Of a stretch of 64,000 bases of DNA, positions 9,552-62,537 are shown in pieces. Below the pieces are notes generated by a model. That model had not been told where the DNA came from, did not search any database, and was given only the letters and a program-made list of their open reading frames with translations. The stretch is taken from IMG/VR virus record IMGVR_UViG_3300049734_000086, positions 10,431 to 74,430 of that record, one strand, 5' to 3'. Made by a program: the position numbers and the translations under genes. The DNA comes from a virus. Numbering within the stretch: position 1 is the stretch's first letter; each line of letters opens with the position of its first letter.

Positions 9552-12500
9552 CTAGTCCACCAGGACCAGTTCCGGTTTCGCGGGCTGTGGATCCGGCGCG
9601 GGGACATCGGAGGGCCGTGCCCCTGCGTAGACCATGGTGTCGAACTCCGGGTTCTTGAGCGGCGTCAGGAAGTGCTTGGTGTGCCACGCGAGGAGGGACT
9701 GCGCCTCCTCTACGGTGCGGGCGTAGAAGACCTCGGGTTTCAGTTGGTGCGTGTTGAGACGTGGACGCCCCGCGCCGACACCCCAGAGGACCTCGAAGCC
9801 GACGCCGAGCCACTTCAGCGCCAGTTGGTACGACTTGTAGGCCAGGGGGTGGAGGCGGTGCGCCGGGTCTGAGAAGCCGTACTTGTCGTAGTAGGCGATG
9901 GTCGAGGTCAGGTACTGGTAGATCTTCGGCGTGAGCTGGGAGTCCGCGCCTTCGTATCCGGCCAGGACGGTCAGATCGCGCATGATCAGCACGTAGGCCA
10001 GCTCCCTGGGCTCTGGATCCTCGATCAGCTCCCGTTGCAGCAGGGGGAGGTTCCGCTGCGCCATCTTGTGGATGCGAATGGGTTCCGTTTCGTAGCCGTA
10101 GTGGACGATGTTGACCGAGGGCACATCGAGGGCCGGGAACACCGCCTCGTTCTTCTTGGTCTCGGGCTGTTCGTGGACCAGTCCGTAGAACTGGATGCCC
10201 CGGTTGGCGCGGAAGACGCGACAGGGGACATCGAAGAACTGGTCGAAGTCGAGCATCAGGTGGTGCTGCCGGATGATGTAGCCGAGATAGGGCCCCGCGC
10301 CGGTCAGTAGCGTGTGAAGCAGGTGCCCGCCCTGGAGATGTTCGTCGGCGTCAATCCACAGGATCCAGTCGGCTTGGTGGTCCTGCTCGGCCAGTCTGAC
10401 AGACTGGTTGCGGACGGCCGAGAAGCCGCATTGCGGCCACTGGAGCCCCAGGGCGGTATGGTCGTGGACGTGGACGTGCGGGAACTGGGCGGCGACCGCC
10501 TTGGTCCCGTCGGTGGAGCCCGTGTCGATGATGACCGTGGCGTCGACCAGCGGCCAGATCGAGTGGAGGCACCTGAACAGCCACTCCTCGGAGTCCCGGA
10601 CCATCATCGTGGCGATGAGGCGCTGGTAGGGCCGGGTGGTCAGAATGGTGTGCCAGTGGTCGCAGGACATCGACGGGTGAGCCTCGACGCCAGCCTCGGC
10701 CCGCCGCCACTGGATGATCCAGTGCCCGCACGAGTTCCCCCGGGGGCTGGGCCCGAAGTCGATGTGCTCCCACTTGGAGTGCTGCTTGCCCTGGAACAGC
10801 ATCGTGATGTCCCGGAGCTGGAAGTGGTGCGTGTGGCCGCGTTGGAGCCGGGTGCGGAAGGGGATGTGCTCGGACAGGGGGCCGTGGGGGCAGGTGATGA
10901 GGCACAGGCCGCCGGGCTTGACGTGGGATTCGAGCCAGTCGATGACGAGGTGAGGCTCGGCGGTGTGTTCGAGGTACTCCCCGCAGAAGACCGCATCGTA
11001 CCCCTCGCCGGGGACGGGCAGTGAGGGCATGGCGCTGAGATTGGCGTCGAGGAAGGTGACCCGGTCCTTCAGCCCCTCCTTGTCGATGGCGGTGAGGGCT
11101 TTGGCCAGGACGCCTTGCGAGTAGTCGACCAGACATACGCGGAGATCGGGCATGGCGCGGAGGGCCGCCAAGGCCAGACTGCCATTGCCGCAGGCCACGT
11201 CGAGTAGGGTCTTGATCCCCGCCTCCTTGAGGTAGTTGACGATGGCCAGCAGCCGGTAGGAGGTCCTGGCCTCCAGCTCGGTGTCCATCGAGAACTCCGC
11301 GTAGTCCTCGGCGGTCTGCTCCTCCTGGCGGATGACACGGTCGCAGAACTGATGCGCCTGCCACGCCTCCTGGGCCCATGGCTCGGTAGCGGTGTCGACG
11401 TGGCCTTCCCGGACAGCCGGGCCCTCGCCCTGGCGCTCCCAGTCGATGATGAGGTCACGGGCCACCAGCTTGGCTGCCACATGGTGGTCGTCATGGAGCA
11501 GCCGCCGGAGGACCTTCAGCTTCTCGGCCTGGTACCTCCGCTCGAACGACTCGACCAGGAACGTCTCCCACTCCTGGGCGATGGTCTCGAACGTGTAGGC
11601 CGGGAACACGTGGGCCTTCCCCGCCTGCTGCATGTCGGAGTACAGCTCGTCGGCCTCCTCCTGGCTCTCCCCCTCGTCCCCGCCCGAGAGCGTGAACACG
11701 GCTTCGAGGAACGAGTCCTGGTAGGCCGCACTCATGGCGTCCCCTTCGATCAGGACGCCCGCGCCCTCGCCCACGGTCTCGGGGAGTGCGCCCTTGTAGG
11801 AACCGATCAGGACGCAGCCGCAGGCCTGGGCTTCCAGGGCGGCGATGCAGGAGGTCTCGGCGAAGTTGTCGACGCCCGGGTAGAGCATCAGGCGGGACGT
11901 GGTGAGGAGCTGGTAGAGGTCCGGCTTGGCCAGATTGCCGTGCCAGACGATGCCGCCGACCTTCTCGTTGACGGCCGCGACCCGGCGGTCGTACTGCTCA
12001 CAGACCTTGTGCCAGCCCTGGGCGTCGTACATCGAGTCGTAGCGACAGAGATGGAGTTCAGCGTCCGGGTAGCGTTCGCGGATCCGGGGCCACATCTTGA
12101 GCAGGGGGTCGAGGCCGCGCTCGGGACGCGAGATGTAGCAGTACTTGTGGCGGTTGCGTACCGGGTGAGGGACCTCGCGCCCCTCGAACGCCGCCAACCC
12201 GCCAGCGAGAGCTGCCTCGATGGACGAGGGCTGGTAGTGCTCGGGCCACACCGGGATCAGCGTGTGGTCGAAACCGTTCTTGGTCACCCACGACGGCGTC
12301 CCCCCGACAATGTCCTTCTGCTTCCCTTCCCACTGCTGGCGGTGGTACTGCGAGACGTAGACCAGGGTGTCGACCTGGGTCAGGGCCGAGGCGACCTGGG
12401 CCACGTCCGCGAGCATGTCCTGGTTCCACAGCAAATTGAGACCGGCCCGGGTCCTCATGGCGAACGGGCTGGTCATACGGAGGCTGACGAACACGTCCGG

Positions 12501-28626: not shown

Positions 28627-29529
28627 TCAGGGCTCCTCACTCGGCGTGGGCGGGGTTTCCTCGGTGAACTGGTCGAACGGGGCTGCGATGTCCGCCCGCA
28701 ACACCTCATCGACCCTGCGCGCCTCCCCTTCGATCACCAGCGGGGTGCTGGTACTCAGTGTCGCTTGGGGGATCGGTCTGGACTCCTGCAGCCGTCTGGC
28801 CAGGGAGACCAGATCGTCCATCGTCGCCTCCGCTAACGGCCGCCGGATGTTGAGGTCCACTTCGACTGGTGCGTCGAGTCCGAGCATCTTGGCCCTCCGG
28901 CTCATGATGTTCAGGGCCTGGGCGATGGAGTACGTCTCTCCCCGTTCGATGGCGGGCCACAGGTAGGTCATCATCTTGTCGAGCCGCGTCAGGTCCAGGG
29001 CCCGGATGTCCTCGGCCAGGATGCGCTCGTACTTCCGCAAGTACGCCAACGCCTCCTGCACGTCCTGGTGCGCCGTCTTGACACTGACCCCCAGGGCCAC
29101 ACCGATCTCGCGGTAGTCGTACCCTGCCGCCCGGTAGTTGAGGGCCTCGACCCGGCGCTGCTCCTTGGTCAGCCGCTGGGGCTTGGCGTCGTCATGCGGG
29201 ATCTTGTCGGGTTCGAGCGGCACGGCCTCTTCGACTTCCGGGAGTGGCTTGCCGAGGTCGATGCGCGGGAGCTTACCGACGAGACTGGCCTTCCCGGCCT
29301 CAGTCTGACCTTGGGGGCCGGGGCCATCAGATGGGGAAGTGTCAATGCCGTTACTCGGGGCGGGCCCTGTGGGCTCACCCGTCACACCCCCATCGTCACC
29401 GTGCGGGGGCTCGGGGTTGGTCAGGTGGTCCAGGCCGCCCTTGAACTCGCCGGGGATCTTCTTACGAGTCTTGCCTTTACGAGCGTTGGCGGCGTTGCGG
29501 CGGTGGGTGGTGGTACGGTGGCCGGGCAC
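28627..29529 (-). CDS. terminase small subunit-like HTH protein
   Basis: ALNYRAAGYDYREIGVALGVS HTH; RRAKMLGLDAP; first gene of late operon. Confidence 0.7.
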   Translation of the reverse strand: MPGHRTTTHRRNAANARKGKTRKKIPGEFKGGLDHLTNPEPPHGDDGGVTGEPTGPAPSNGIDTSPSDGPGPQGQTEAGKASLVGKLPRIDLGKPLPEVEEAVPLEPDKIPHDDAKPQRLTKEQRRVEALNYRAAGYDYREIGVALGVSVKTAHQDVQEALAYLRKYERILAEDIRALDLTRLDKMMTYLWPAIERGETYSIAQALNIMSRRAKMLGLDAPVEVDLNIRRPLAEATMDDLVSLARRLQESRPIPQATLSTSTPLVIEGEARRVDEVLRADIAAPFDQFTEETPPTPSEEP

Positions 29530-29745
29530 GGGGAATTAGGCTCCAGAATCAGGGGTCATCGACGGGTCTGGGCAGGCAGGGTAACAGGAATTCGGTGTTA
29601 CCGGGTAGCCCTGGGCTGCCAGCGGGGTACTGCGGCGGGGTCTGGCAAGGGTACTGCGGGCCGGGCCAGGGAGGTCAGTTACTGGGCTCTGGGGCTTATG
29701 GCTGAGCTAGGTCCTGGCAGCCTGGAAAGTGTCTCAAAATAGGAC

Positions 29746-29774
29746 AGTCTGGCCTAGGTGGTTGGGTGTATAAT
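29746..29774 (+). promoter_or_regulatory. putative rightward early promoter
   Basis: Perfect TATAAT at 29769-29774 in the CpG-free divergent intergenic region; no canonical -35. Confidence 0.5.
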
Positions 29775-29779
29775 GTGGG

Positions 29780-30815
29780 CTTGTCTGGTCAGTCTGAGCC
29801 TTGATTGCAGCTACTGACCACGACGTGACAACTGAATCTGAGCATGCCCTGGATGACCCCGCCACAACGGAGGGCCAGGGACAGGCCGCCAAGTAGACAT
29901 GGCGATGACCCAGCCGCTCACCCCAACGACCCGAGACCGCGATTCGGAACGGCCGCTGACGAATGGCTTCTGTGACTGAGACACGGGAGCCGTGAGGAGT
30001 ACTGGTGCCTTGTGAGAAGCAAGGCCGACCGCCTGAGAGCGTGTGCCGCAAGCGCCCCGAGACCGAGCCACCGGAACGGGTGCGGCACTCATCCTCCCAG
30101 GCGTGGAGCCGTCGAGTGGGGCCGACCGACACATGAGGACCAGCGTGGAGCACCCGCTCTGGAGCTACGAGACCAGGGTTGCGACGGGGATGAGCCGACC
30201 ACGCCATGTGGACTAGAGTGACAGTGATGGCGCGGCAGCACGGAAGCAAGCAAGGACGTGCGCGCAGTGCTCGCGGGTGACTGGCAAGCCGAGAGACCGG
30301 GTGACCGGGGAGCTTGGATCGGTGGGACGAGAGGACAAGGCCCTCGTACTTCCCGCAACGCCAGAGCACGGAGGCGGGTGTGCCGGTTCGATCCCGGCCC
30401 CTTCATCCACCAGTCGGTATCAAGGCCGACCCGCGCCATCGCCAGCTCCTAGAAACCAACCACCAAACACGCACGGCCGATGGAGGAGAGTAGGGCCATC
30501 ATTCACCCGTGCCGCGACGACGAGCCGCGCCCTGAGACCGAGCCGCCGGAACGGGCACCACGGCCACGTCATGCGACCAAGCAGCCAATCGAAGTGTGAA
30601 GCAAGCCGCCATGAGGCGTCCGAGCCAGTGTGACTGGGCGTGGGTGGGGGGTCTCCCGAATGGACGGGATTGAAGAGGGAGCCATTCAACAAGAACTGGC
30701 GGGAACGGGGAGACCGGCAACGGTCGATGAACCGCCGCGAGTGCCGCCCCTGACTGTGAGTCGCGGTACGCCGAGGGTGAAGCAGGATAGCCCTCGACAT
30801 GGAAGTGAGGAGGGA
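29780..30815 (+). ncRNA. candidate long structured leader/ncRNA
   Basis: ~1 kb with no credible CDS; repeated hairpin motif GAGACCG-n-CGGAACGG. Confidence 0.35.
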
Positions 30816-42748: not shown

Positions 42749-43663
42749 GTGGCCCGCACCTACAACTGGTCCTGGCCCCCCAAAGGGGTCAGGCCCGAGG
42801 CCTGGAAAGCCACCGAGACCATCTGCAAAGAGGCGATCAAGCGGAGCGGGACCACCACCTGCTCCTGCGCCTTCTCCACCGGCAAGGACTCGCTGGCGAT
42901 GATGATTGCGCTCCACCACTTCTTCGAGACCGTGGTCCCCGTGTTCTGGTACCACGTGCCCAACCTCGGGTTCATCGAACGGAGCCTGGAGTACTACGAG
43001 CGGGTGTTCAAGACCCAGACGGTCAGACTGCCTCACCCGTACCGCTTCTACCACTTCTCCTACTTCCAGCTCCAGCCGCCCGACCGGATCGCGGCCATGG
43101 ACTGGATCATGGCGGAGGTTCCTGATTTCACCATGGACTCCCTGTTCGGCGAGGTGCGGACCCAGTACGGCCTCGACAAGCTGGGAGGCTCGAAGATCGG
43201 GGCGATGCACGCCACCGGGATCCGGGCGGCCGACTCCCCGATCCGGGCCAGTCTCTACCGCAAGCACGGCGGGTTCGCGCCCGCTGGCCTGCTGTTCTAC
43301 CCAGTGATCACCTGGAACCTCGACGACATCGAGGCGGCCTTGGACCACACCGGCCTGATGCTGCCGCCCGAGTACCGCTTCATCGGCCGCAGCTTCGACG
43401 GCATCATGCGGCGCTACACGACACCAGTGAAGGAGCATTGGCCGGAGGACTGGGTCAAGATCCTCGACGACTTCCCGCTGGCCGACCTGGAGTTCTTCCG
43501 GGCCGAGAAGGTCACACCGCCGGAGCTGCTGAAGCCGCTCTACAAGTTCATCGGACGCGAGGGACCGAAGATGAGCGATACTCTCCGCCGGGAGGAGACC
43601 GCACATGCAACCGACTCGACTCGCCCTGGTGACCGCCCTCGTCGCCGTCGCCCTGACCGCTAG
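42749..43663 (+). CDS. phosphoadenosine phosphosulfate reductase-family (PP-loop) protein
   Basis: AFSTGKDS, TGIRAADS..R, YPVITW. Confidence 0.8.
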   Translation: MARTYNWSWPPKGVRPEAWKATETICKEAIKRSGTTTCSCAFSTGKDSLAMMIALHHFFETVVPVFWYHVPNLGFIERSLEYYERVFKTQTVRLPHPYRFYHFSYFQLQPPDRIAAMDWIMAEVPDFTMDSLFGEVRTQYGLDKLGGSKIGAMHATGIRAADSPIRASLYRKHGGFAPAGLLFYPVITWNLDDIEAALDHTGLMLPPEYRFIGRSFDGIMRRYTTPVKEHWPEDWVKILDDFPLADLEFFRAEKVTPPELLKPLYKFIGREGPKMSDTLRREETAHATDSTRPGDRPRRRRPDR

Positions 43664-44552
43664 AGGCCACACGCAAGTCCGCGAACTCGAACTGCTGGTG
43701 GTGATGGACGGGGAGTTCACCCAGCGCATCGCCCCCACCACGCCCCAGCAGTGGCTCGACGCCCTGGTGACGGAGTCCAATGTCTGGTGGGAGAGGGACC
43801 TGGGCATCCGGCTCAAGGTCGTCCGCCTCGACGCCTTTCCCGACCCGGCGACCGACCCGTTCACGGCGGCCACGGACAACCCACAGGGCACGCTCGACGA
43901 GATCTCGGCCTACGGCAATGCAGTCAGTACCCCCCGAGACGCCGCGCATCTGTTCACCGGCCGCGCGATGATGTACGGCGGCTACACCTACGTCGGGGTG
44001 ACGTGCAAGCACCCGGCGTTCAGTTATGGCTGGTCGCAGTTGGGGTTCTGGGGCTACAACTGGACGATTGCCGTGGCGAGCGTGGAGCTGGCCCACCAGT
44101 TGGCGGGTGTCTACTACGACAACATCCCGAGCTGTGACGGGGCCTTGTTGGGCAAAGGGCCAGCGCCGGAGGACTACCACCAGTACTGGTTCTGCGCCGC
44201 AGCCAAGGCCGACATCGACGCCCACTTGGCGGCCAACCCCCCATGTCTGACCACCGAGGGCGGACCCCCGCCCACCGACACGCAGTCCCCAGTGGTCAGT
44301 ATCATCGAGCCGTCGGGCAATAGGATCCCGGCGGGCCCGACCTTCACCATCTCGGCCCAGGCCACCGACAATGTCGCCGTGGCGCGGGTGGACATGGCGG
44401 TCAATGGCGTGCTGGCGTGTACCGACGACCTGTCGCCCTACGCCTGCACCGCCCCGCAGAACGCGAAGAACAAGAACTACCGGATCGAGGTCCGCGCCTA
44501 CGACACGGCGGGGAACGTCGGGACGGCCAGTAAGACGGTACGAGCACGATGA
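43605..44552 (+). CDS. secreted reprolysin/M12-like domain + Ig-like domain protein, catalytic motif degenerate
   Basis: Signal peptide; RDAAHLFTG, GYTYVGVTC, VELAHQLA in place of HExxH; ATDNVAVARV...AYDTAGN Ig-like domain. Confidence 0.7.
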   Translation: MQPTRLALVTALVAVALTARGHTQVRELELLVVMDGEFTQRIAPTTPQQWLDALVTESNVWWERDLGIRLKVVRLDAFPDPATDPFTAATDNPQGTLDEISAYGNAVSTPRDAAHLFTGRAMMYGGYTYVGVTCKHPAFSYGWSQLGFWGYNWTIAVASVELAHQLAGVYYDNIPSCDGALLGKGPAPEDYHQYWFCAAAKADIDAHLAANPPCLTTEGGPPPTDTQSPVVSIIEPSGNRIPAGPTFTISAQATDNVAVARVDMAVNGVLACTDDLSPYACTAPQNAKNKNYRIEVRAYDTAGNVGTASKTVRAR

Positions 44553-44591
44553 GTCGGATGACCCGAATGATCAAGGAGACGCGCAACCCCT

Positions 44592-45101
44592 ATGGCGAAG
44601 AAACCCCTACCCCCGATGCGGCACATGGTGCGGACCAGCGGCCCTGGTGCCCGCCCGATGACTAAGCCGAAGTCCGGCATCCAGAGCAAAGCGCAGAAGC
44701 AGGCCGAGGAGGACCTGGAGATGACGCCGCTGGAACTGGTCCAGCAGGCCGAGGTCGAACTGGCCAGTATCGCCGCCAGCCGGAACGACCCGAAGAACGT
44801 CGAGTGGCGCAAGGCGCGGATGAAGTCGCAGCAGCAGATGGCCGACGCCAACAATACCGAGTACTGGTGCTGCGTGTGCTTCCAGAGCGAGGAGCAGAAA
44901 CTGGACTTCCTGAAGCAGTCTGGCCTCCTCCGCCACGACGAGGACAAGTACTTCACCGCCCAGGAAGTCGTCGACGCATGGAACGAGGGGAGGAGCCGCA
45001 AGCCCCTGAAGTTGACAGCGGACAGTCGTGGGCACCATACTCTGCCGGTGAACCGGCGATGGTCGCGCTTCGCCATGCCCATTGAGGGGCCTGGGGAATA
45101 G
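44592..45101 (+). CDS. hypothetical protein
   Basis: EYWCCVCFQSEEQK..FL motif; AGGAG RBS. Confidence 0.6.
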   Translation: MAKKPLPPMRHMVRTSGPGARPMTKPKSGIQSKAQKQAEEDLEMTPLELVQQAEVELASIAASRNDPKNVEWRKARMKSQQQMADANNTEYWCCVCFQSEEQKLDFLKQSGLLRHDEDKYFTAQEVVDAWNEGRSRKPLKLTADSRGHHTLPVNRRWSRFAMPIEGPGE

Positions 45102-45166
45102 GTCGCGTCAAGGACCCAGCCGGTCAGAATGCTCACCCCGGAGCCAAGCGGGGAGGGAGACAGAAT

Positions 45167-45364
45167 ATGCAGTACGCATTCACCGGCAAAAATCTCGTGT
45201 CCATGGCGTGTGTCCCGGCGACGGGCGGGGGCCGTGGTGGCCGTCGGCGTCGAGCGGGTCGTCAACCGAATGGCCGTCCCCTCCTGCGTGGGGCTGCGGC
45301 TCGGAGAAGTAACGCGGCGTTCCGGCGTCGACTTCTGAGACTCCAGGAGGCGGGGATCCGCTAA
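45167..45364 (+). CDS. small Arg/Gly-rich basic protein with 14-aa leader
   Basis: Strong GGAGGGAG RBS; last gene before terminator. Confidence 0.6.
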   Translation: MQYAFTGKNLVSMACVPATGGGRGGRRRRAGRQPNGRPLLRGAAARRSNAAFRRRLLRLQEAGIR

Positions 45365-45417
45365 CGGACTGAGGGCAGTCGGCAGTCGGCAACGGTCGAC
45401 GGCCGCAGTCGGCGTAC

Positions 45418-45463
45418 AAGAAAAAACCCCTAACAGGTTCTAAGGGCCTGTTAGGGGTTTCTT
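45418..45463. terminator. bidirectional intrinsic terminator
   Basis: AAACCCCTAACAGG / CCTGTTAGGGGTTT stem with A- and T-tracts between convergent genes. Confidence 0.8.
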
Positions 45464-45656
45464 ACTCTGAGGGTTCAGCCAGTGGTCTACACTGCACTGG
45501 CCCTATAATCCTGCAGCATGTCTCAGGGCCCTGCAGTGGCCAGTACCAGAGGAATAGCAGGCCACAGAAGTTAATGGCCTGCCACTGCTCCACAGCTACT
45601 GTGATTGGGGATCCTAGGTTGGTCCTGTAGGTCAAGAGCTTAGGCTCGATTCTCAT
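45462..45656 (-). CDS. small hypothetical protein (CpG-free island)
   Basis: ATGA-coupled to 45653-45775; ends at terminator. Confidence 0.45.
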   Translation of the reverse strand: MRIEPKLLTYRTNLGSPITVAVEQWQAINFCGLLFLWYWPLQGPETCCRIIGPVQCRPLAEPSE

Positions 45657-45775
45657 CTCAGCACCTTGATTGCTGGCATGTGCTTAGCCTGCCACTGGTC
45701 TACAGCCTGCCTTGCCCCAGTTGCCAGCATGGCAGCCAGGGCAACTAGGACAAGGCCCAGTGTTAGAGTTTTCAT
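45653..45775 (-). CDS. 40-aa membrane/secreted peptide
   Basis: MKTLTLGLVLVALAAMLATG..., GGGAG RBS. Confidence 0.55.
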   Translation of the reverse strand: MKTLTLGLVLVALAAMLATGARQAVDQWQAKHMPAIKVLR

Positions 45776-45818
45776 TCTGTTCTCCCTTGGGTTGGTCAGA
45801 CTGACCTAGCTGGGTTCT

Positions 45819-46448
45819 CTGCCTTTGGTACTGCCCCTGAGAGTGCAGGTTAACTACTCTGACTCTGTGCCCCTGATCTCTAGCCAGTGGGTTGTACTGG
45901 CAGCCTTGATTGCCTCTGCAGGCCTTGCCATGGTTAGCAAGTCTGGTTGTTCGTCTGCTCTGTAGCACAGGCCACAGTAGCATCTAAGGGCCTGTAGTCT
46001 GGCCTTGGGGGTTCTCGACTGCAGCTTGCTACTTGAGCTTTGCTGTGATCTCAACATTGTCCAAGGTCCAGACTTGCCCTTTGTGACAAGGCAGGTTGGC
46101 CAGTGCTCTGTTGATGGCTGCAACCTGGTTAGCTGCTAGCTGCTTTGGCTGGAGGTAGTAGTTGTCCCCATACTGGGAGGCAGCCTTGAGATCTGAGGCA
46201 AGTTCGGCACCCTGAAAAATCATAGAGTGCTTCTTCTTCCCCTTCTCCCCTGCCTTGGTTGCCTCTGTCCTAGCTGGCACCTTGCCCTTGGCTTGGACTG
46301 CCTTGCCCTTGCCCTTGGCTTGGACTGCCTTGACTGCCTTGCCCTTGCCCTTGCCCTTGTTCGACACTGCCTTAACTGGATTCTGCTTAGCCATTGGTCT
46401 CTACTCCTGAAATCTGAAAAGCACTCTCAGGGGCAGTACCAAAGGCAG
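45819..46448. repeat. 28-bp perfect inverted repeat pair (45819-45846 and 46421-46448)
   Basis: CTGCCTTTGGTACTGCCCCTGAGAGTGC and its exact reverse complement. Confidence 0.9.
46029..46394 (-). CDS. Lys-rich protein (KGKGKAV repeats)
   Basis: AGGAG RBS; 121 aa. Confidence 0.7.
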   Translation of the reverse strand: MAKQNPVKAVSNKGKGKGKAVKAVQAKGKGKAVQAKGKVPARTEATKAGEKGKKKHSMIFQGAELASDLKAASQYGDNYYLQPKQLAANQVAAINRALANLPCHKGQVWTLDNVEITAKLK

Positions 46449-46595
46449 GAACCTGTAAGGTCAGTCTGACTTAGGTATTCAGTTGTAAAGAGCATAGGCA
46501 GCCTACCATAGGCCTAGGAGGTCAGATGTTAAATCCATGTTAAATGTGGCCTAGGTGGTCAGACTGTGCAGTCTGGCCTAGCTGGCCAGTTCTCG

Positions 46596-46870
46596 GCAGC
46601 CAGGGCCAGGGCCAGACATGGCAGCCAGGGCCCTAGGATGGCCCTAGGATGGCCAGGGCCAGGACACTAGCAGTCTGGCCAGGGAGGCAGCCAGGGCCCA
46701 AGGGCCAGGGCCAGGGCCCAAGGGCCAGGGCCAGGGCCCAAGGGCCAGGGCCCAAGGGCCAGGGCCAGGGCCAGGGCCAGGGCCAGGGAGGCAGGGAGGC
46801 AGGGAGGCACCATTGATCAGAGTTGGCAGCCAGGGCCAGGGCCAGGGCAGTAGTAGCAGTAGCAGGGCCC
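46596..46870. repeat. (CCAGGG)n / CCCAAGGG tandem repeat tract
   Basis: Direct reading; densest at 46691-46790. Confidence 0.9.
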
Positions 46871-47150
46871 TGAGACGCCCGTCACCACGCCCCACCGTCC
46901 CGCTGACGGCCAGGGTACGATTCGTCAATCGGGCAGCCAGGACCGCAGCCAGGACCGCCCGCGCACGCCCCAGACCCAAGCCCTACCGCTAGTGGTCCGG
47001 GCCGCTAAACCCCCCTACATTGTGGGACTTCCCACGGTCGGGCTTTCCCTCATACACTGCCGCTCGTTCCCATGCGACGGTCTCTCAATCGTCACGCTGG
47101 CCGCCCCACCTCTGCCCGGTCAGCGCCGCCCCTTCCCTGGAGCTACGTAC

Positions 47151-47705
47151 ATGCCGCGACACGCTTCGACCAACGCCGACGACATCGACGCTCGGCGATC
47201 TCAGTACGCACCCGAGGACTTCATCATCCCGAGCAAGGACCATAAGGGCGACTCGGTGCGCGTCTGGAACCGGATCCAACCGGGCCACGACCGCGCCGTG
47301 GCCGTCATCGTCGGCAGTAAGCGGTTCCCCTTCAAGACCCCTGGTGACTGCGTGCGCTGGTGCATCCATCGTGGGCTCAAGACCCTGGAGCAGATGGAGC
47401 CGGTCCCCAGCGTCACCCAGCAGCTCGACGCGATGATGGGGGCGCTGCGTGACGAGGAGTTCCACCAGGAGTTCCAGACCTTCATCCAGCACGCGCAGTC
47501 GGTGATCCAGCGCCACGTGACCGAGGGGTCGCACGGAGAGGCCCGGCGGCTCATCGCCACGCTCAAGGCGGAGGTCCTGAAGATGCCCAAGGGCTACTGG
47601 CGCGAGAAGTACCTCACGGCGATCCAGAGTCAGTTCAAGCACATCCTCGACGAGAAGCGGGCGCGCGTCCACCTGCTCCGCGCCGTCGACGAGGACGAGT
47701 CGTGA
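47151..47705 (+). CDS. hypothetical protein, possible DNA-binding regulator
   Basis: MPRHAST start with GGAG; first gene of replication operon. Confidence 0.55.
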   Translation: MPRHASTNADDIDARRSQYAPEDFIIPSKDHKGDSVRVWNRIQPGHDRAVAVIVGSKRFPFKTPGDCVRWCIHRGLKTLEQMEPVPSVTQQLDAMMGALRDEEFHQEFQTFIQHAQSVIQRHVTEGSHGEARRLIATLKAEVLKMPKGYWREKYLTAIQSQFKHILDEKRARVHLLRAVDEDES

Positions 47706-58902: not shown

Positions 58903-58908
58903 TACCAG

Positions 58909-59810
58909 GGCAGTCATGGCCAAGCAGGGCATGGACTGATCTGGCACGGCGCGGTACGGCCGTCGAGGCTGCGACTGGTACGGTGTCGACCGGCCAGTCG
59001 CGGCGCGGCGGGGCGAGGTGCGGCAGGCATGGAGTGGTACGGCACGGAGAGCTGTGGTACGGCATGGAGAGGCAGTCATGGTTCGGATTGGCCAGGAGAG
59101 CCGTGGATAGTCGGGGCCGGGCGTGGCGGTCGCGGATAGGCGAGGCTAGACCTGGACTGATCGGAGCAAGGATTGGCGGTCGAGGCGAGGCGGGGCTTCA
59201 CGTGGCGCGGGTAGGCCCGGGAAGGCCGGGACTGGCATGGCGGTCAGCGCATGGCAAGGAGTGGTGTGTGGTTGTCACGGCGAGGCGCGGCGAGGATAGG
59301 CCGACAAGGTATGAACAGTTATGGCGCGGAGAGCTGTGCTAAGGAGCAGACTGGCCGTCGAGGTCAGATGCGGATTGTCACGGAGCGGAGGGGCTAGGTG
59401 AGGCTGTCCAGGACGGGCACGGCCGGGCGGAGAGGGGCCGGGCGAAGGTGAGGCAAGGCCGTCGTGGCCACACTGGGAGGGGTGGGGTACGGCGACGACG
59501 GGAGAGGCAAGGCAGTTCTGGCTGCATCAGGAGGGTCATGGCATGGCCGGGCGTGGCAAGGGCGCGGCTGTCGGCGCAAGGATTGCTGTGGAGTGACGCA
59601 GCACAGCAAGGCAGGGCGGTCGCGGAGTGGAGAGCCAAGGACTGCACCGGAGAGGCCTGCCGTGGTGAGGCGGTCGAGGCGGGGACGGGCATGGTCGGGA
59701 GACGGCAGGGCGAGCCAGGGATAGGCGGGGCGGTCCCGGCACGAGAAGGAAAGCAAAGGAAGGGAGGGACAAGATAACGCATGGCGAGAACGGCTGTGGC
59801 TCGGCAGGCC
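58909..59810 (+). ncRNA. array of ~16 units of (GGH-NN)n pentamers delimited by GGCNGTC; putative guide RNA array
   Basis: 5-nt periodicity read directly; delimiters at 58909, 58958, 59022, 59071, 59125, 59175, 59239, 59299, 59353, 59402, 59457, 59511, 59566, 59615, 59669, 59729. Confidence 0.7.
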
Positions 59811-62537
59811 AGGAAGGACAGTCTGCCGAGTCGACCAGTAGACTATCGGCTCTCACCGAATCACGTCCCCGGCCACGGCCCCCACGACGCCGACATCATG
59901 ATCGTCGGCGAAGGCCCGGGCCGGGTCGAGGACCGGGAGCGGCTGCCGTTCGTAGGCCCCAGTGGTCAGATTCTCACCGACGCCCTCGAACGTCCCGACC
60001 CACCACTCCTGCGCCGGGACTGCTACATCACCAACATCATCAAGCGCAGAATCCAGGACGACGAGGACCCGACGCCCGAGGAGATCGCGTACTTCACCCC
60101 CGAACTCCTTCGGGAGCTGGAGGAGGTGGACCCCGACGTGGTGATCGCGGCCGGGGCCTTCGCGGCCAGATTCTTCCTCGGGCCCGACTTCAACATGGAG
60201 TGGCAGCACGGGATGCCTGCGTGGAGCCATCAGTACGGGGTACCCGTCGTCCCCTGCTATCACCCCGCCTCCGCCCTCCATGACACCGAGCAGATGGACG
60301 CCGTCTACTGGGACTACGCCCGGGCCGGGGCCTTTGTGCGCGGGGTACTGGGGCTCCATCAGCCGAAGCCGAGGGTGACCCAGGTCCTCGACGCCGACCT
60401 GTTGCCGACCTTCCTGCCCCAGAACAGTACCCTGGGCATCGACACCGAGGACAAGGTCGACGGGACCCCCTGGTGCGCGACGGTGAGCTGGAAGGACGGC
60501 TCGGGGTGCTTCATCCCCGGCGACGACGAGCGGTCGGTCAAGCGGCTGCGTGTCCTACTGACCGACCCCACCCTCGCCGTCTACATCCACAACACCATGC
60601 ACGACCTCAAACCGCTCCGTCAGATGGGCGTGGACGTGGGGCGCGGGCTCGATTGGAGCCACCGGGGGGACTACGCGCGGGTGGTCGACACCATGGTCCT
60701 GGCCTTCGAGCAGGGCAAGATCCACACCCAGGGCCTCAAGACCCTCGCCTACCGCCTGCTGAACATCATCATGCAGGAGTACATGGACATCGTCGGGCCC
60801 GTGGCCCAGGAGCGGGCGTACTGGAAACTGGTCAAGTGGGCCGGTCACCAGTGGCCAGTCCCCGAGGCCACACCCAGTTACAACCCCGAGACCGGCAAGC
60901 TGACATGGTCCCGGCCCTGGGGGCTCAACACCCACTTCAACCGCCTGCTCGCGGACTTCAATCCTGCGCTCCGGGACTACCTGTACTTCAAGGCCACCAA
61001 GAAACGGCCCACGCCCCCGGAGGTGGACTTCGACTACATCCCGAACCCGGCCGTCGATCTCATCAAGCGATGGGAGAAGGTGGACCTATTCAAACGCGAG
61101 CAGGTCTCGGCCCAGTACGGCACTCACCGCATTGACGACACCGACCTCTCCCACTGCGACTTCACCACGGCCGCCCACTATGCCTGCCAGGACGCCGATG
61201 TCACACGGATCCTGGGCCGGGACCTGGAGGCCAGACACCGGATTCTGGACCTCACCGAGATCAGCGAGATCGACCACGGCCAGATCCCCATGGTCGAGCG
61301 CATGCAGGGCAACGGCATGCCCAGCGACCCCGACCACTTCCGCGCCCTCAGCCGGGAGATGCGGGAGCACGAGGCCACGCTGATTGGGGTACTCGAAACC
61401 ATCACCGGCCGCGAGCTGAACCCCAATAGCACCGACCAAGTCGCCGACCTCCTCTTCAAGGAGATGAAGCTGGAGGCCATCAAGACGACCAGGACCGGGA
61501 AGCTCAGTACCGGCAAGAAGGCCTTACAACACCTGCGGAAGACCAACCCGGTGGTCGAGTGGATCATGTCGAGCCGCGAGCACGTGAAGGTCTCGGGCTT
61601 CTGCGAGTCCATCGTCGAGTACACCCGGCTGATGGTCGACGGGGAGTACCGGGCCTTCTACGAGCTGATGGTCACCCGGGCCAAGACCGGCAGACTGGCC
61701 AGCAAGAAATTCAACGCCCTGGCCATCCCCGTACGGACTGCGCTGGGGAAGCGGATCCGGCACGGGTTCAAGGCGCGGCCCGGGCGGCAGTTGGGAACCT
61801 GGGACCTGAACCAGATCGAGATGCGGGTCATGGCCCACCGCAGCCAGGACCCCTTGATGCTGGAGATCTACAACCGCAACCCCAAGCGGTTCGCCAAGTG
61901 GGAGCGGGACCTGCACGTCGAGACCGCCAGCAAGATCTGGGGCTGTAGTCTCCAGGACGTGAAGAAGGACTGGAGGACCGCCGCCAAGTCCACGGGCTTC
62001 GGCATCATCATGGGCATCACGGGCGTGGGCCTCAGTGACCAGATGCGGCTCTACGGCCTGAACCCAGAGGACTGGCCCGAGGACCGCTGCGACGAGCTGA
62101 TCGCCGACTGGCTGAGGATCTACAAGGGGGTGAACGACTACCAGCAGGTGAAACGCGCCGAGGCCCGGAGGACGGGGGAAGTCCGGGACCTGTTCGACCG
62201 CCGCCACCGGCTGCCCCATGCCACCTGTCCACTGAGCTGGATCCGGGGGGAGGCCGAGCGGCAGTCGCATGCGCTCGATATTCAGGGCAGTGCCCAGGCG
62301 ATCGAGAAGATCTGCATGGCCAGAATCTGGCGCGAGCTGCTGCCGGAGCTGCGGTGGATGGGGCACTGCGAGCCCCTGCTGCAAGTACATGACGAACTGG
62401 TGTGGGAGTTCGACGAAGACCTGGGGCCGGTGATCGACCCCTTGATGCTGCACTACTTGACCACCACGGTCAGTCTCAGCGTCCCGATAGAGGCAGGCGG
62501 GGCGATGGGGCAGTCGTGGGGAGACTTGGAGAAGTGA
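59781..62537 (+). CDS. family A DNA polymerase with N-terminal uracil-DNA glycosylase (family 4-like) domain
   Basis: VGEGPG..E....PFVG.SG and YHP (UDG); IDTE, HN, YACQD (exo); DLNQIEMR, R..AK...FG, VHDE (pol); start uncertain. Confidence 0.92.
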   Translation: MARTAVARQARKDSLPSRPVDYRLSPNHVPGHGPHDADIMIVGEGPGRVEDRERLPFVGPSGQILTDALERPDPPLLRRDCYITNIIKRRIQDDEDPTPEEIAYFTPELLRELEEVDPDVVIAAGAFAARFFLGPDFNMEWQHGMPAWSHQYGVPVVPCYHPASALHDTEQMDAVYWDYARAGAFVRGVLGLHQPKPRVTQVLDADLLPTFLPQNSTLGIDTEDKVDGTPWCATVSWKDGSGCFIPGDDERSVKRLRVLLTDPTLAVYIHNTMHDLKPLRQMGVDVGRGLDWSHRGDYARVVDTMVLAFEQGKIHTQGLKTLAYRLLNIIMQEYMDIVGPVAQERAYWKLVKWAGHQWPVPEATPSYNPETGKLTWSRPWGLNTHFNRLLADFNPALRDYLYFKATKKRPTPPEVDFDYIPNPAVDLIKRWEKVDLFKREQVSAQYGTHRIDDTDLSHCDFTTAAHYACQDADVTRILGRDLEARHRILDLTEISEIDHGQIPMVERMQGNGMPSDPDHFRALSREMREHEATLIGVLETITGRELNPNSTDQVADLLFKEMKLEAIKTTRTGKLSTGKKALQHLRKTNPVVEWIMSSREHVKVSGFCESIVEYTRLMVDGEYRAFYELMVTRAKTGRLASKKFNALAIPVRTALGKRIRHGFKARPGRQLGTWDLNQIEMRVMAHRSQDPLMLEIYNRNPKRFAKWERDLHVETASKIWGCSLQDVKKDWRTAAKSTGFGIIMGITGVGLSDQMRLYGLNPEDWPEDRCDELIADWLRIYKGVNDYQQVKRAEARRTGEVRDLFDRRHRLPHATCPLSWIRGEAERQSHALDIQGSAQAIEKICMARIWRELLPELRWMGHCEPLLQVHDELVWEFDEDLGPVIDPLMLHYLTTTVSLSVPIEAGGAMGQSWGDLEK

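Follow-up and report, generated by a model that had tools for sequence, protein, structure and literature searches.

A soil phage gene cassette almost free of the dinucleotide CG

Why should a short stretch of a GC-rich phage genome lack almost every CG when the DNA on both sides is full of them? The question was raised by a window of 64,000 nucleotides (positions 10,431 to 74,430 of the 74,430-bp IMG/VR record IMGVR_UViG_3300049734_000086; all coordinates below are those of the window), in which a preliminary description noticed an island of about 1.45 kb with only some six CG dinucleotides where roughly a hundred would be expected. Three readings were offered there: DNA exposed unmodified, as a first-injected end or an origin, and purged of CG-containing restriction sites; a locally methylated and deaminated region; or an acquired cassette. 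The observation itself held in every item listed there, whereas its interpretation is only partly supported, with purging by selection being the part that fits best.

A local loss of one dinucleotide

Between 45421 and 46870 there are 6 CG against 118.0 expected from the C and G content of that stretch (o/e 0.051, GC 57%; Poisson P about 2e-42), and the same 6 against about 118 are found when the island is taken to its full 1.46 kb, 45415–46875. The whole window is at 0.92 and the rest of the 74.4-kb genome at about 0.93, while GpC in the island is not depleted (o/e 1.19). The effect is not a property of non-coding DNA, as the phage's other intergenic DNA has 673 CG observed against 723 expected (o/e 0.93). 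The edges are sharp: the last CG on the left is at 45413, 8 nt before a terminator hairpin, and CG resumes at 46876. In the complete record the seven longest CG-free gaps are the six inside the island plus a 159-nt gap at 29664–29820, and the next longest is 71 nt. That second patch has 0 CG against 10.9 expected (P about 2e-5). It lies in the divergent intergenic region, the main promoter hub, between the minus-strand virion module and the plus-strand early/replication module and contains TATAATGTGGG (29769). Two words of 12–13 nt, CAGTCTGGCCTAG (29745, 46569) and TGGCCTAGGTGG (29750, 46547), each occur in the window only in this patch and in the island, although the two zones have no extended homology.

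The surviving CGs (45647, 45952, 46016, 46205, 46362, 46594) are all TCG on the plus strand, as the preliminary description stated, and more exactly YTCG, which is CGA[AG] on the minus strand, the sense strand of the island. Only 9.6% of the genome's other CGs have this context, so that six of six corresponds to 0.096^6, which points to a specific reader and not to drift. The word abundances that had been noticed were also confirmed. CTAG runs at 8.3 per kb in the island against 0.59 per kb elsewhere (14-fold enriched), CCTAGG occurs 5 times in the island and 4 times in the other 62 kb, and CAG/CTG is about twofold enriched. In addition, TTAA occurs 5 times in the island and once in the other 73 kb.

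An assembly chimera, which had been named beforehand as a condition that would overturn the observation, is very unlikely. Runs from six different soil samples hold 91–98% of the sampled 31-nt words of 44800–47500, a contig of an independent run covers 43036–46689 without a difference, the identical protein of the island's largest ORF is on record from 6 contigs, and the island shares motifs with the rest of the genome. The odd composition remains in favor of a foreign insert artefact, as does the fact that contigs break in the 46690–46810 repeat, so that the right junction is not bridged by any of the contigs compared.

Anatomy of the island

The island is laid out as one minus-strand transcription unit inside a plus-strand block, so its genes do run opposite to their neighbors. 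A sigma-70-like promoter, TTAACA-16 nt-TATGGT, lies at 46505–46532 (minus strand). This is a consensus match only, but it is one of only 6 such matches in the 74-kb genome and one of 2 that are intergenic and correctly oriented. A boxA-like element, TGCTCTTTACAA, follows at 46483–46494 (minus strand), 11 nt downstream of the -10 hexamer. Its 8-nt core GCTCTTTA occurs exactly only here in the window, and the element matches 10 of 11 positions of the gamma-proteobacterial consensus GYTCTTTAANA (bioRxiv 10.1101/091223), differing at position 9; an 8-nt BoxA is recognised by NusB-NusE (PMC3177189). The 5' arm (46421–46470, minus strand, in the leader of ORF A) and the 3' arm (45795–45846, minus strand) of a 46–52-bp long-range RNA stem bracket ORF A. 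The stem rests on inverted repeats of 28 nt (100%) and 24 nt (79%), is paired in both the MFE and centroid folds with z = -6.1, and carries the palindrome GGTCAGACTGACC in the outer part of its 3' arm.

ORF A (46029–46394, minus strand, 121 aa) has a Lys/Ala/Gly-rich N-terminal tail, which is histone-H1-like in its basic character, a conserved C-terminal domain of about 70 aa, and AGGAG 8 nt upstream of its ATG. It belongs to a real, conserved protein family: seven homologues (P0002–P0008) were found, and the protein is conserved at 81% identity in a relative. Its function is less easily read. The AF2 model is poor (mean pLDDT 57), Atlas hits were weak, and the best fold matches, R3H/KhpB-like, reach only Z 4.7–5.3 on that model, with no clear R-x3-H motif in the alignment. 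Two small ORFs follow, both putative as to coding. ORF B (45653–45775, minus strand, 40 aa) has a hydrophobic N-terminal half and AAGGGAG 7 nt upstream of its ATG, and its stop overlaps the start of ORF C (45462–45656, minus strand, 64 aa) in ATGA. A search with ORF C returned no homologue other than itself, and Pfam, PHROGs and NCBIfam gave no hit for ORFs A, B or C. Rfam and tRNA scans of the whole window were empty. The unit closes with a bidirectional terminator hairpin at 45421–45463, a 17-nt stem flanked by an A-run and a T-run (terminator-like hit on the minus strand at 45449–45424), which ends both the upstream plus-strand operon and the island's unit and forms the island's left edge.

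Upstream of the promoter are operator-like words at 46511–46585, namely GGCCTAGG[T/A]GGT twice and the near-palindrome GGTCAGACTG-TG-CAGTCTGGCC, which are shared with the second CG-free patch. These are followed at 46599–46860 (plus strand) by GCCAGG-type tandem repeats, 72% GC with 0 CG, including a 111-nt run of GGG tracts (46694–46804) that is the longest G-quadruplex-type pattern in the window. The right edge splits the divergent intergenic region, such that the 140 nt next to a candidate promoter of the rightward operon, TACATTGTGGG (47016–47026, plus strand), are CG-normal. This element lies just outside the island and is the only other TAnnnTGTGGG in the genome.

Selection, import or decay

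Composition alone, the other condition that could have overturned the observation, is refuted by the codons. At codons that are neither NCN nor followed by G, where no CG can arise, island GC3 is 0.82 against 0.87 for the phage; at NCN codons before G it is 0.04 against 0.85, and at other codons before G it is 0.62 against 0.83. Re-coding the three ORFs with the phage's codon usage gives 25, 10.5 and 16 CG for ORFs A, B and C, whereas 2, 0 and 1 are observed, and no simulation reached the observed values. The drop in GC from 65% to 54–57% is about what replacing one base of each lost CG would give. The purge is thus CG-specific on the phage's own codon background.

Mutational decay, in which local CG methylation and deamination would have eroded CG to TG/CA, is not supported and appears very unlikely. 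CA and TG are somewhat raised (o/e 1.32 and 1.42 against 1.09 and 1.15) and NCA codons are frequent. However, CT/AG steps gain nearly twice as much (+83 per kb) as CA/TG steps (+44 per kb), the edges are sharp to within a few bases, the ORF A protein is conserved, and the surviving CGs follow a strand-specific context rule. Furthermore, a search of the phage for C5 methylase, DpdA or Que genes found only a Dam-type N6-adenine methylase, two class-I SAM methyltransferase domains, a PAPS-reductase-like protein and a UDG-like domain on the polymerase.

Our preferred reading, which we hold about as likely as not, is that the island is a self-contained transcription unit of the phage kept free of CG by selection in place. 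The order of sequence elements set out above is what the analysis shows, with promoter and boxA known as matches to consensus. What is inferred is that host RNA polymerase would start at this promoter, probably among the first events of infection; that the boxA would recruit NusB/NusE so that transcription runs through to the terminator; that an RNase III-type enzyme would cut the long stem and release the ORF A message; and that the DNA of the unit, or its transcript, must stay invisible to a still unidentified factor that reads CG but tolerates CGA[AG] on the sense strand, the rest of the genome being unexposed to it or protected in some other way. Selection in place is favored by the purge being extreme and unique in the genome, covering coding and non-coding DNA alike, and ending on the left within 8 nt of the transcript's terminator. 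It is also favored by the island's use of the phage's own regulatory language. The motif CAGWCTGRCC occurs 34 times genome-wide (GGTCAGWCTG 17 times, where under 1 is expected by our calculation), in leaders of late genes and 5 times in the island at leader positions. Signs of an early, host-driven unit are the promoter match, the unique boxA core directly downstream and the predicted stem, early timing being inferred from consensus matches only. Care must be taken, since the reading rests on the sequence of this phage without DNA of relatives, and since 170 nt of the CG-free stretch is a tandem repeat of a CG-less unit, which comes cheaply. In addition, 80 loci of distant helicase relatives show no comparable island, although at 33–44% identity they are too distant for synteny to be judged.

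Import remains a live, if less likely, rival. Phage morons are independent promoter–gene–terminator units inserted in phage operons (Hendrix and co-workers), and the island resembles them in having its own promoter-like sequence and factor-independent terminator, in sitting in opposite orientation between genes of a larger operon, and in differing in base composition (GC 57% against 65%, with codon use different overall, and the TTAA and CTAG excess). Its edges fall at module boundaries, a terminator on the left and mid-intergenic on the right. The distant helicase relatives lack an island at this position, within the limits just given, and relatives of ORF A occur on unrelated metagenome contigs. 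In this view the unit was picked up by recombination from a phage lineage that avoids CG, genome-wide or in its own accessory cassettes, and the CG-free state is inherited history and not a need of this phage. A moron's odd composition is taken as a sign of foreign origin; here, however, the deviation is one single dinucleotide on an otherwise resident-like codon background, with the phage-wide motif at leader positions, and a second patch 16 kb away at the main promoter shows the same rule without being a copy. No donor with about 55% GC and a CG o/e of 0.05 is known to us, and even if the unit was imported, the state must have been created by selection somewhere.

A third possibility, which we consider doubtful, is that the two zones are structural DNA elements, such as a replication origin, a packaging or injection-stop site, or a nucleoprotein platform bound by the Lys-rich ORF A protein, whose mechanics or protein contacts exclude CG steps. 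The dense operator-like repeats, the palindromes with CTAG, the G-quadruplex-type array, the basic tail of ORF A and the extension of the CG-free state about 345 nt upstream of the promoter are in its favor, and the T5 injection-stop region is also a maze of repeats and palindromes (bioRxiv 10.1101/866236). Against it, the purge also covers about 1.1 kb of ordinary coding sequence and the terminator, no evidence of a replication initiator or terminase recognition was found, and no known DNA-binding mode requires a total absence of CG over 1.4 kb. The first-injected end or origin of the preliminary description likewise remains conjecture, as the record's 24-bp terminal repeat looks like an assembly overlap and gives no physical ends.

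What might read CG

Given selection in place, three kinds of reader can be considered, none of them better than an even chance. Slightly ahead is a DNA-level attack on the part of the genome that acts first. Published precedents show that only the first-acting DNA may need to lack a target that is harmless elsewhere in the genome, as in the T5 first-step-transfer region (bioRxiv 10.1101/866236) and the leading region of Autographiviridae against a Type I R-M system (PMC12455610). Like these, the island is highly repeat-rich and regulatory, carries a host-type promoter match and small genes of unknown function that are probably early, and lacks a target present elsewhere. Those cases concern defined sites of 6 nt or longer at a known genome end, whereas here a whole dinucleotide is purged, and stepwise entry can be proposed only by analogy. 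No phage RNA polymerase or T7-like core proteins were recognised in the genome. Avoidance of CG-containing restriction sites, as put forward in the preliminary description, is too narrow. Genome-wide avoidance in phages (reportedly treated by Rusinov et al. 2018) likewise removes short words through selection by host nucleases, but normally concerns specific 4–6-nt palindromes. The loss here is local, concerns a dinucleotide and affects all CG contexts except YTCG on one strand, a rule that ordinary palindromic sites would not produce, while other palindromes (GGCC, CCTAGG, CTGCAG, GGGCCC, GGATCC, GATC) are present or enriched.

Nearly as likely is a reader acting on a single strand or on RNA, analogous to ZAP and the CpG-suppressed immediate-early IE1 gene of cytomegalovirus (PMC7498042). 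In that case, too, CpG is lost locally, down to synonymous sites, in the first-expressed transcript of a large DNA virus whose other genes keep normal CpG, but the host is a eukaryote with a known CpG-binding protein. No bacterial RNA-level reader of CG is known, and the roughly 345 nt of CG-free DNA upstream of the predicted promoter are unexplained by it. The least likely of the three is avoidance of a CG-context DNA mark that would disturb promoter or regulator binding; in this case the candidate rightward promoter at 47016 is a difficulty, as it contains CGs. No CG-specific nuclease, RNase or modification enzyme is known to us, and none was found in the phage. An unlikely but far-reaching extension is that bacteria of this soil habitat possess a defence or housekeeping factor that reads CG on a single strand, either RNA or transcription-exposed DNA, while ignoring CGA[AG]. 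This would be a prokaryotic counterpart of ZAP-type CpG sensing, to which phages would respond by writing their first-expressed, Nus-antiterminated cassette and main early promoter without CG.

If kept up by selection, the loss would be a footprint of a selective agent with a specificity of two to three bases, far shorter than any restriction site, and no such agent is known in bacteria. In a 65% GC genome the contrast is as stark as it can be. If real, the agent would be a new class of defence, or a new phage DNA mark, and would also explain why leading or early regions of phages have peculiar sequence 'dialects'. As the cassette is small, fully delimited and has readable signals, it is a convenient test object. 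Independently of the cause, the order of promoter, boxA core and bracketing stem matches the layout of rrn operon leaders, in which RNase III stems bracket the product, and of boxA-dependent antitermination at rrn and lambda nut sites, except that the bracketed product is a protein gene and not rRNA. If it functions as its sequence suggests, this would be a neat case of a phage borrowing the host's rRNA expression logic.

Searches for the DNA of relatives gave nothing usable. Viral contigs were scanned with ORF A, with the ORF A alignment and with the helicase alone; metagenome contigs with the alignment and with a degenerate pattern for YLQPKQLAANQ; and genome contigs with P0016, one of the close helicase relatives P0012–P0020 at 52–62% identity, and with a degenerate pattern, which gave 2 chance hits. 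A DNA pattern of boxA plus motif gave 84 chance matches in viral contigs, with no CG-free context. Against cultured phages, blastn and tblastn returned only a repeat-driven hit and helicases at about 25% identity, the best being from an acidobacterial phage.

Metatranscriptome contigs cover parts of the island in two studies, but they also cover other parts of the phage at similar depth, and DNA carry-over cannot be excluded. Five strain variants at 45947–45984 create no CG, which with five sites is uninformative (P about 0.36). Finally, a 15-nt inverted repeat (45520–45534 / 46862–46876) is built around the palindrome AGGGCCCT, but was rejected as a pair of transposon ends because its left arm lies inside ORF C and not at the island's edge.

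Genomic setting and extent of the CG depletion

The 74,430-bp IMG/VR virus record, of which the window takes up bases 10431-74430, comes from soil metagenomes, and its 24-bp terminal repeat is most simply read as an assembly overlap. The genome is 65% GC and is organized in two main modules. A virion, lysis, and packaging module, with the large terminase, portal, scaffold, major head protein, and an amidase, runs on the - strand and ends at window position 29529. A replication and early module runs on the + strand from about 30043 and holds UvrD-type and DinG/Rad3-type helicases, RadC, an ERCC4 nuclease, a Dam-type methylase, and a family A DNA polymerase (59781-62537, +) with an N-terminal uracil-DNA-glycosylase-superfamily domain (PF03167, E 8e-27). 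Ahead of the polymerase gene lies an 878-nt non-coding stretch (58903-59780) with a CG o/e of 1.01. The nearest cultured phages share only about 25% identity in the helicase, indicating that this is a little-known lineage.

The observation made in the preliminary description holds in full. Positions 45421-46870 contain 6 CG against 118 expected (o/e 0.05), while every other 500-nt window of the record lies between 0.59 and 1.29 and only the windows overlapping the two CG-free zones fall below 0.69. In the whole genome, the longest CG-free gaps are the six inside the island and one of 159 nt at 29664-29820, with the next longest being 71 nt. GpC is normal, and other intergenic DNA of the phage has a CG o/e of 0.93, so the effect is not a property of non-coding DNA. 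The further points of that description are all correct, namely the TCG context of the remaining CGs, the abundance of CTAG, CCTAGG, and CAG/CTG, the edges at the terminator and at 46876, the opposite orientation of the genes, and the two words shared with the second patch. Its interpretation, which ranged from purging of CG-containing restriction sites to local methylation and deamination or an acquired cassette, was partly supported.

An assembly artefact is unlikely. Runs from six different samples hold 91-98% of the sampled words of 44800-47500, although four of these samples may be the source of the assembly. One independent contig runs from 43036 to 46689 without a difference, across the left edge and all genes. 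However, the right edge lies just beyond the tandem repeat where short-read contigs break and is bridged by none of the listed pieces, so it rests on the IMG/VR assembly and the share of words.

Anatomy of the island

Read on the - strand, the island has a sigma-70-like promoter, TTAACA-16-TATGGT, at 46532..46505, which is one of only six such matches in the genome and one of two that are intergenic and correctly oriented. Eleven bases downstream lies TGCTCTTTACAA, whose core GCTCTTTA occurs exactly only here in 64 kb. This element matches 10 of 11 positions of the BoxA consensus GYTCTTTAANA (bioRxiv 10.1101/091223), and an 8-nt BoxA is recognized by NusB-NusE (PMC3177189). The 5' arm of a long inverted repeat follows (46421-46470), and then come a Shine-Dalgarno sequence and ORF A (46394-46029), about 180 nt of structured spacer, and the 3' arm (45795-45846). 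The arms share 28 perfect and 24 imperfect base pairs and pair in both the minimum-energy and centroid folds of the 721-nt RNA, with z = -6.1. Directly after the stem come a Shine-Dalgarno sequence and ORF B (40 aa, hydrophobic), which ORF C (64 aa) overlaps by ATGA. A hairpin at 45421-45463, flanked by an A-run and a T-run, can terminate both convergent units. Upstream of the promoter are GGCCTAGG[T/A]GGT words, a 22-nt near-palindrome, GGCCCTAGGAT repeats, and a GCCAGG array with a 111-nt G-quadruplex-type run. The order promoter, boxA, bracketing stem is the layout of rRNA operon leaders. These sequence features are shown by the analysis, whereas any function in the manner of such leaders is inferred from sequence alone.

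ORF A is a real gene. A relative (P0002) has 81% identity over the C-terminal two thirds, and six more distant proteins share a domain of about 70 residues behind a variable Lys/Ala/Ser/Gln-rich tail. All come from metagenome contigs. A contig of one soil run (X5) shows small insertions and deletions at 46317-46339, inside the CCTTGC (Lys-Gly/Ala) repeat of ORF A (tail at 46301-46359), and the basic tail is therefore length-polymorphic between strains, as it is between the proteins P0001 and P0002. Searches of protein family libraries returned no match for ORF A. Its AlphaFold model is weak (mean pLDDT 57), and the best structural neighbours of this model are R3H/KhpB-type RNA or single-strand-DNA-binding domains at Z about 5, which is only a lead. 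ORFs B and C have ribosome-binding sites, but no homologues were found.

Pattern and possible origin of the CG loss

The codon test is the key result in explaining how the CG loss was made. Where no CG can arise (codons that are neither NCN nor followed by G), the island ends its codons in G or C 82% of the time, compared with 87% in the rest of the phage. Where a C or G in third position would create a CG, the figures are 4% against 85% (NCN before G), 46% against 90% (NCN before other bases), and 62% against 83% (other codons before G). Rewriting the three proteins of ORFs A, B, and C with the phage's codon usage gives 25, 10.5, and 16 CGs, while 2, 0, and 1 are observed, and no simulation came near the observed values. 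The lower GC content of the island is therefore a consequence of the purge and not its cause. The replaced steps are mainly CT/AG (+83 per kb), followed by CA/TG (+44 per kb), which is not the transition-only signature of methyl-cytosine deamination. The six remaining CGs are all YTCG on the + strand, which is CGA[AG] on the sense strand. Only 9.6% of the phage's other CGs have this context, so the chance of six out of six is about 1e-6. A symmetric rule (TCG or CGA on either strand) is also met, with P about 0.005, but the extra flanking base and the orientation of the three non-palindromic sites make the rule strand-specific. With six sites this is suggestive, not conclusive.

Whether the island is native or imported can be approached from several sides. 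Its moron-like build, inverted orientation, and sharp edges speak for import, as do the presence of CTAG and TTAA and the absence of such an island near the helicase of 80 distant relatives. TTAA occurs five times in the island and once in the other 73 kb, where TATA and ATAT are also nearly absent, but this may follow simply from the extreme GC3 codon bias and not from site avoidance. Against recent import speak the resident-like codon background and the island's use of the word CAGWCTGRCC. This word occurs 34 times in the genome (GGTCAGWCTG 17 times, where we calculate that about 0.35 is expected), for instance at 1302, 8635, 16270, 29787, 45794, and 46459 on the - strand. It sits in the leaders of late genes and five times in leader positions of the island. 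Several copies lie in intergenic leaders, oriented with the downstream late genes as CAGACTGACCA, and the word is a candidate phage-specific promoter, processing site, or regulator site.

The second CG-free patch also argues against import. It sits exactly in the divergent region between the two main modules, holds the only TATAAT-GTGGG of the genome, and shares unique 12-13-nt words with the island's operator-like region without being a copy of it. The island's right edge divides one intergenic region, such that the part serving the leftward unit is CG-free while the 140 nt next to the rightward TACATTGTGGG element are CG-normal. TATAATGTGGG (29769-29779, +) and TACATTGTGGG (47016-47026, +) are the only two TAnnnTGTGGG words in the genome. 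Each stands at the head of one of the two + strand gene blocks, and they are probable promoters of the two rightward operons.

Candidate readers of CG

Taken on present evidence, this is a real, statistically overwhelming, sharply bounded, and CG-specific purge of one small, fully signalled phage transcription unit and of the main promoter hub, and it is most likely maintained by selection. Scans of sequence collections for the cassette in relatives returned nothing, so this inference rests on the one genome. Literature searches found no published description of such a phenomenon. No factor that reads CG could be identified. The phage has no recognizable cytosine methylase or deazaguanine pathway, and the island is rich in classical restriction sites without CG, so it is not a general site-poor stretch.

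Published cases do, however, show the logic by which only a small, first-acting part of a viral genome must lack a target. For example, EcoRI or CRISPR targets in T5 matter only in the first-step-transfer DNA (bioRxiv 10.1101/866236), and the leading region of Autographiviridae alone decides sensitivity to a Type I system (PMC12455610). Similarly, the CpG-suppressed IE1 gene of cytomegalovirus escapes the RNA sensor ZAP (PMC7498042). The island fits this logic through its host-type promoter and boxA. The close fit of its left edge to the end of the predicted transcript and the strand-specific residue fit an RNA or single-strand reader. The CG-free 345 nt upstream of the promoter and the promoter-only patch at 29664-29820 fit a DNA-level reader better. 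We therefore consider the general reading about as likely as not. Within it, a DNA-level attack is only slightly preferred over a single-strand or RNA-level reader, both remaining tentative, and avoidance of a CG-context DNA mark is a less likely possibility.

Two genes near the CG-free zones were also noted. A PAPS-reductase-like protein (42749-43663, +; PHROGs 2302 and 424, no Pfam hit) is encoded 1.7 kb from the island, and its family includes DndC-type DNA-sulfur-modification enzymes, although no link to the CG purge could be shown. The first gene of the leftward module (28627-29529, -), next to the second CG-free patch, matches PHROG 645 (annotated 'RNase E') and also has a weak sigma-70 region-4 helix-turn-helix match, and its product could be a phage sigma-like or small-terminase-like DNA-binding protein.
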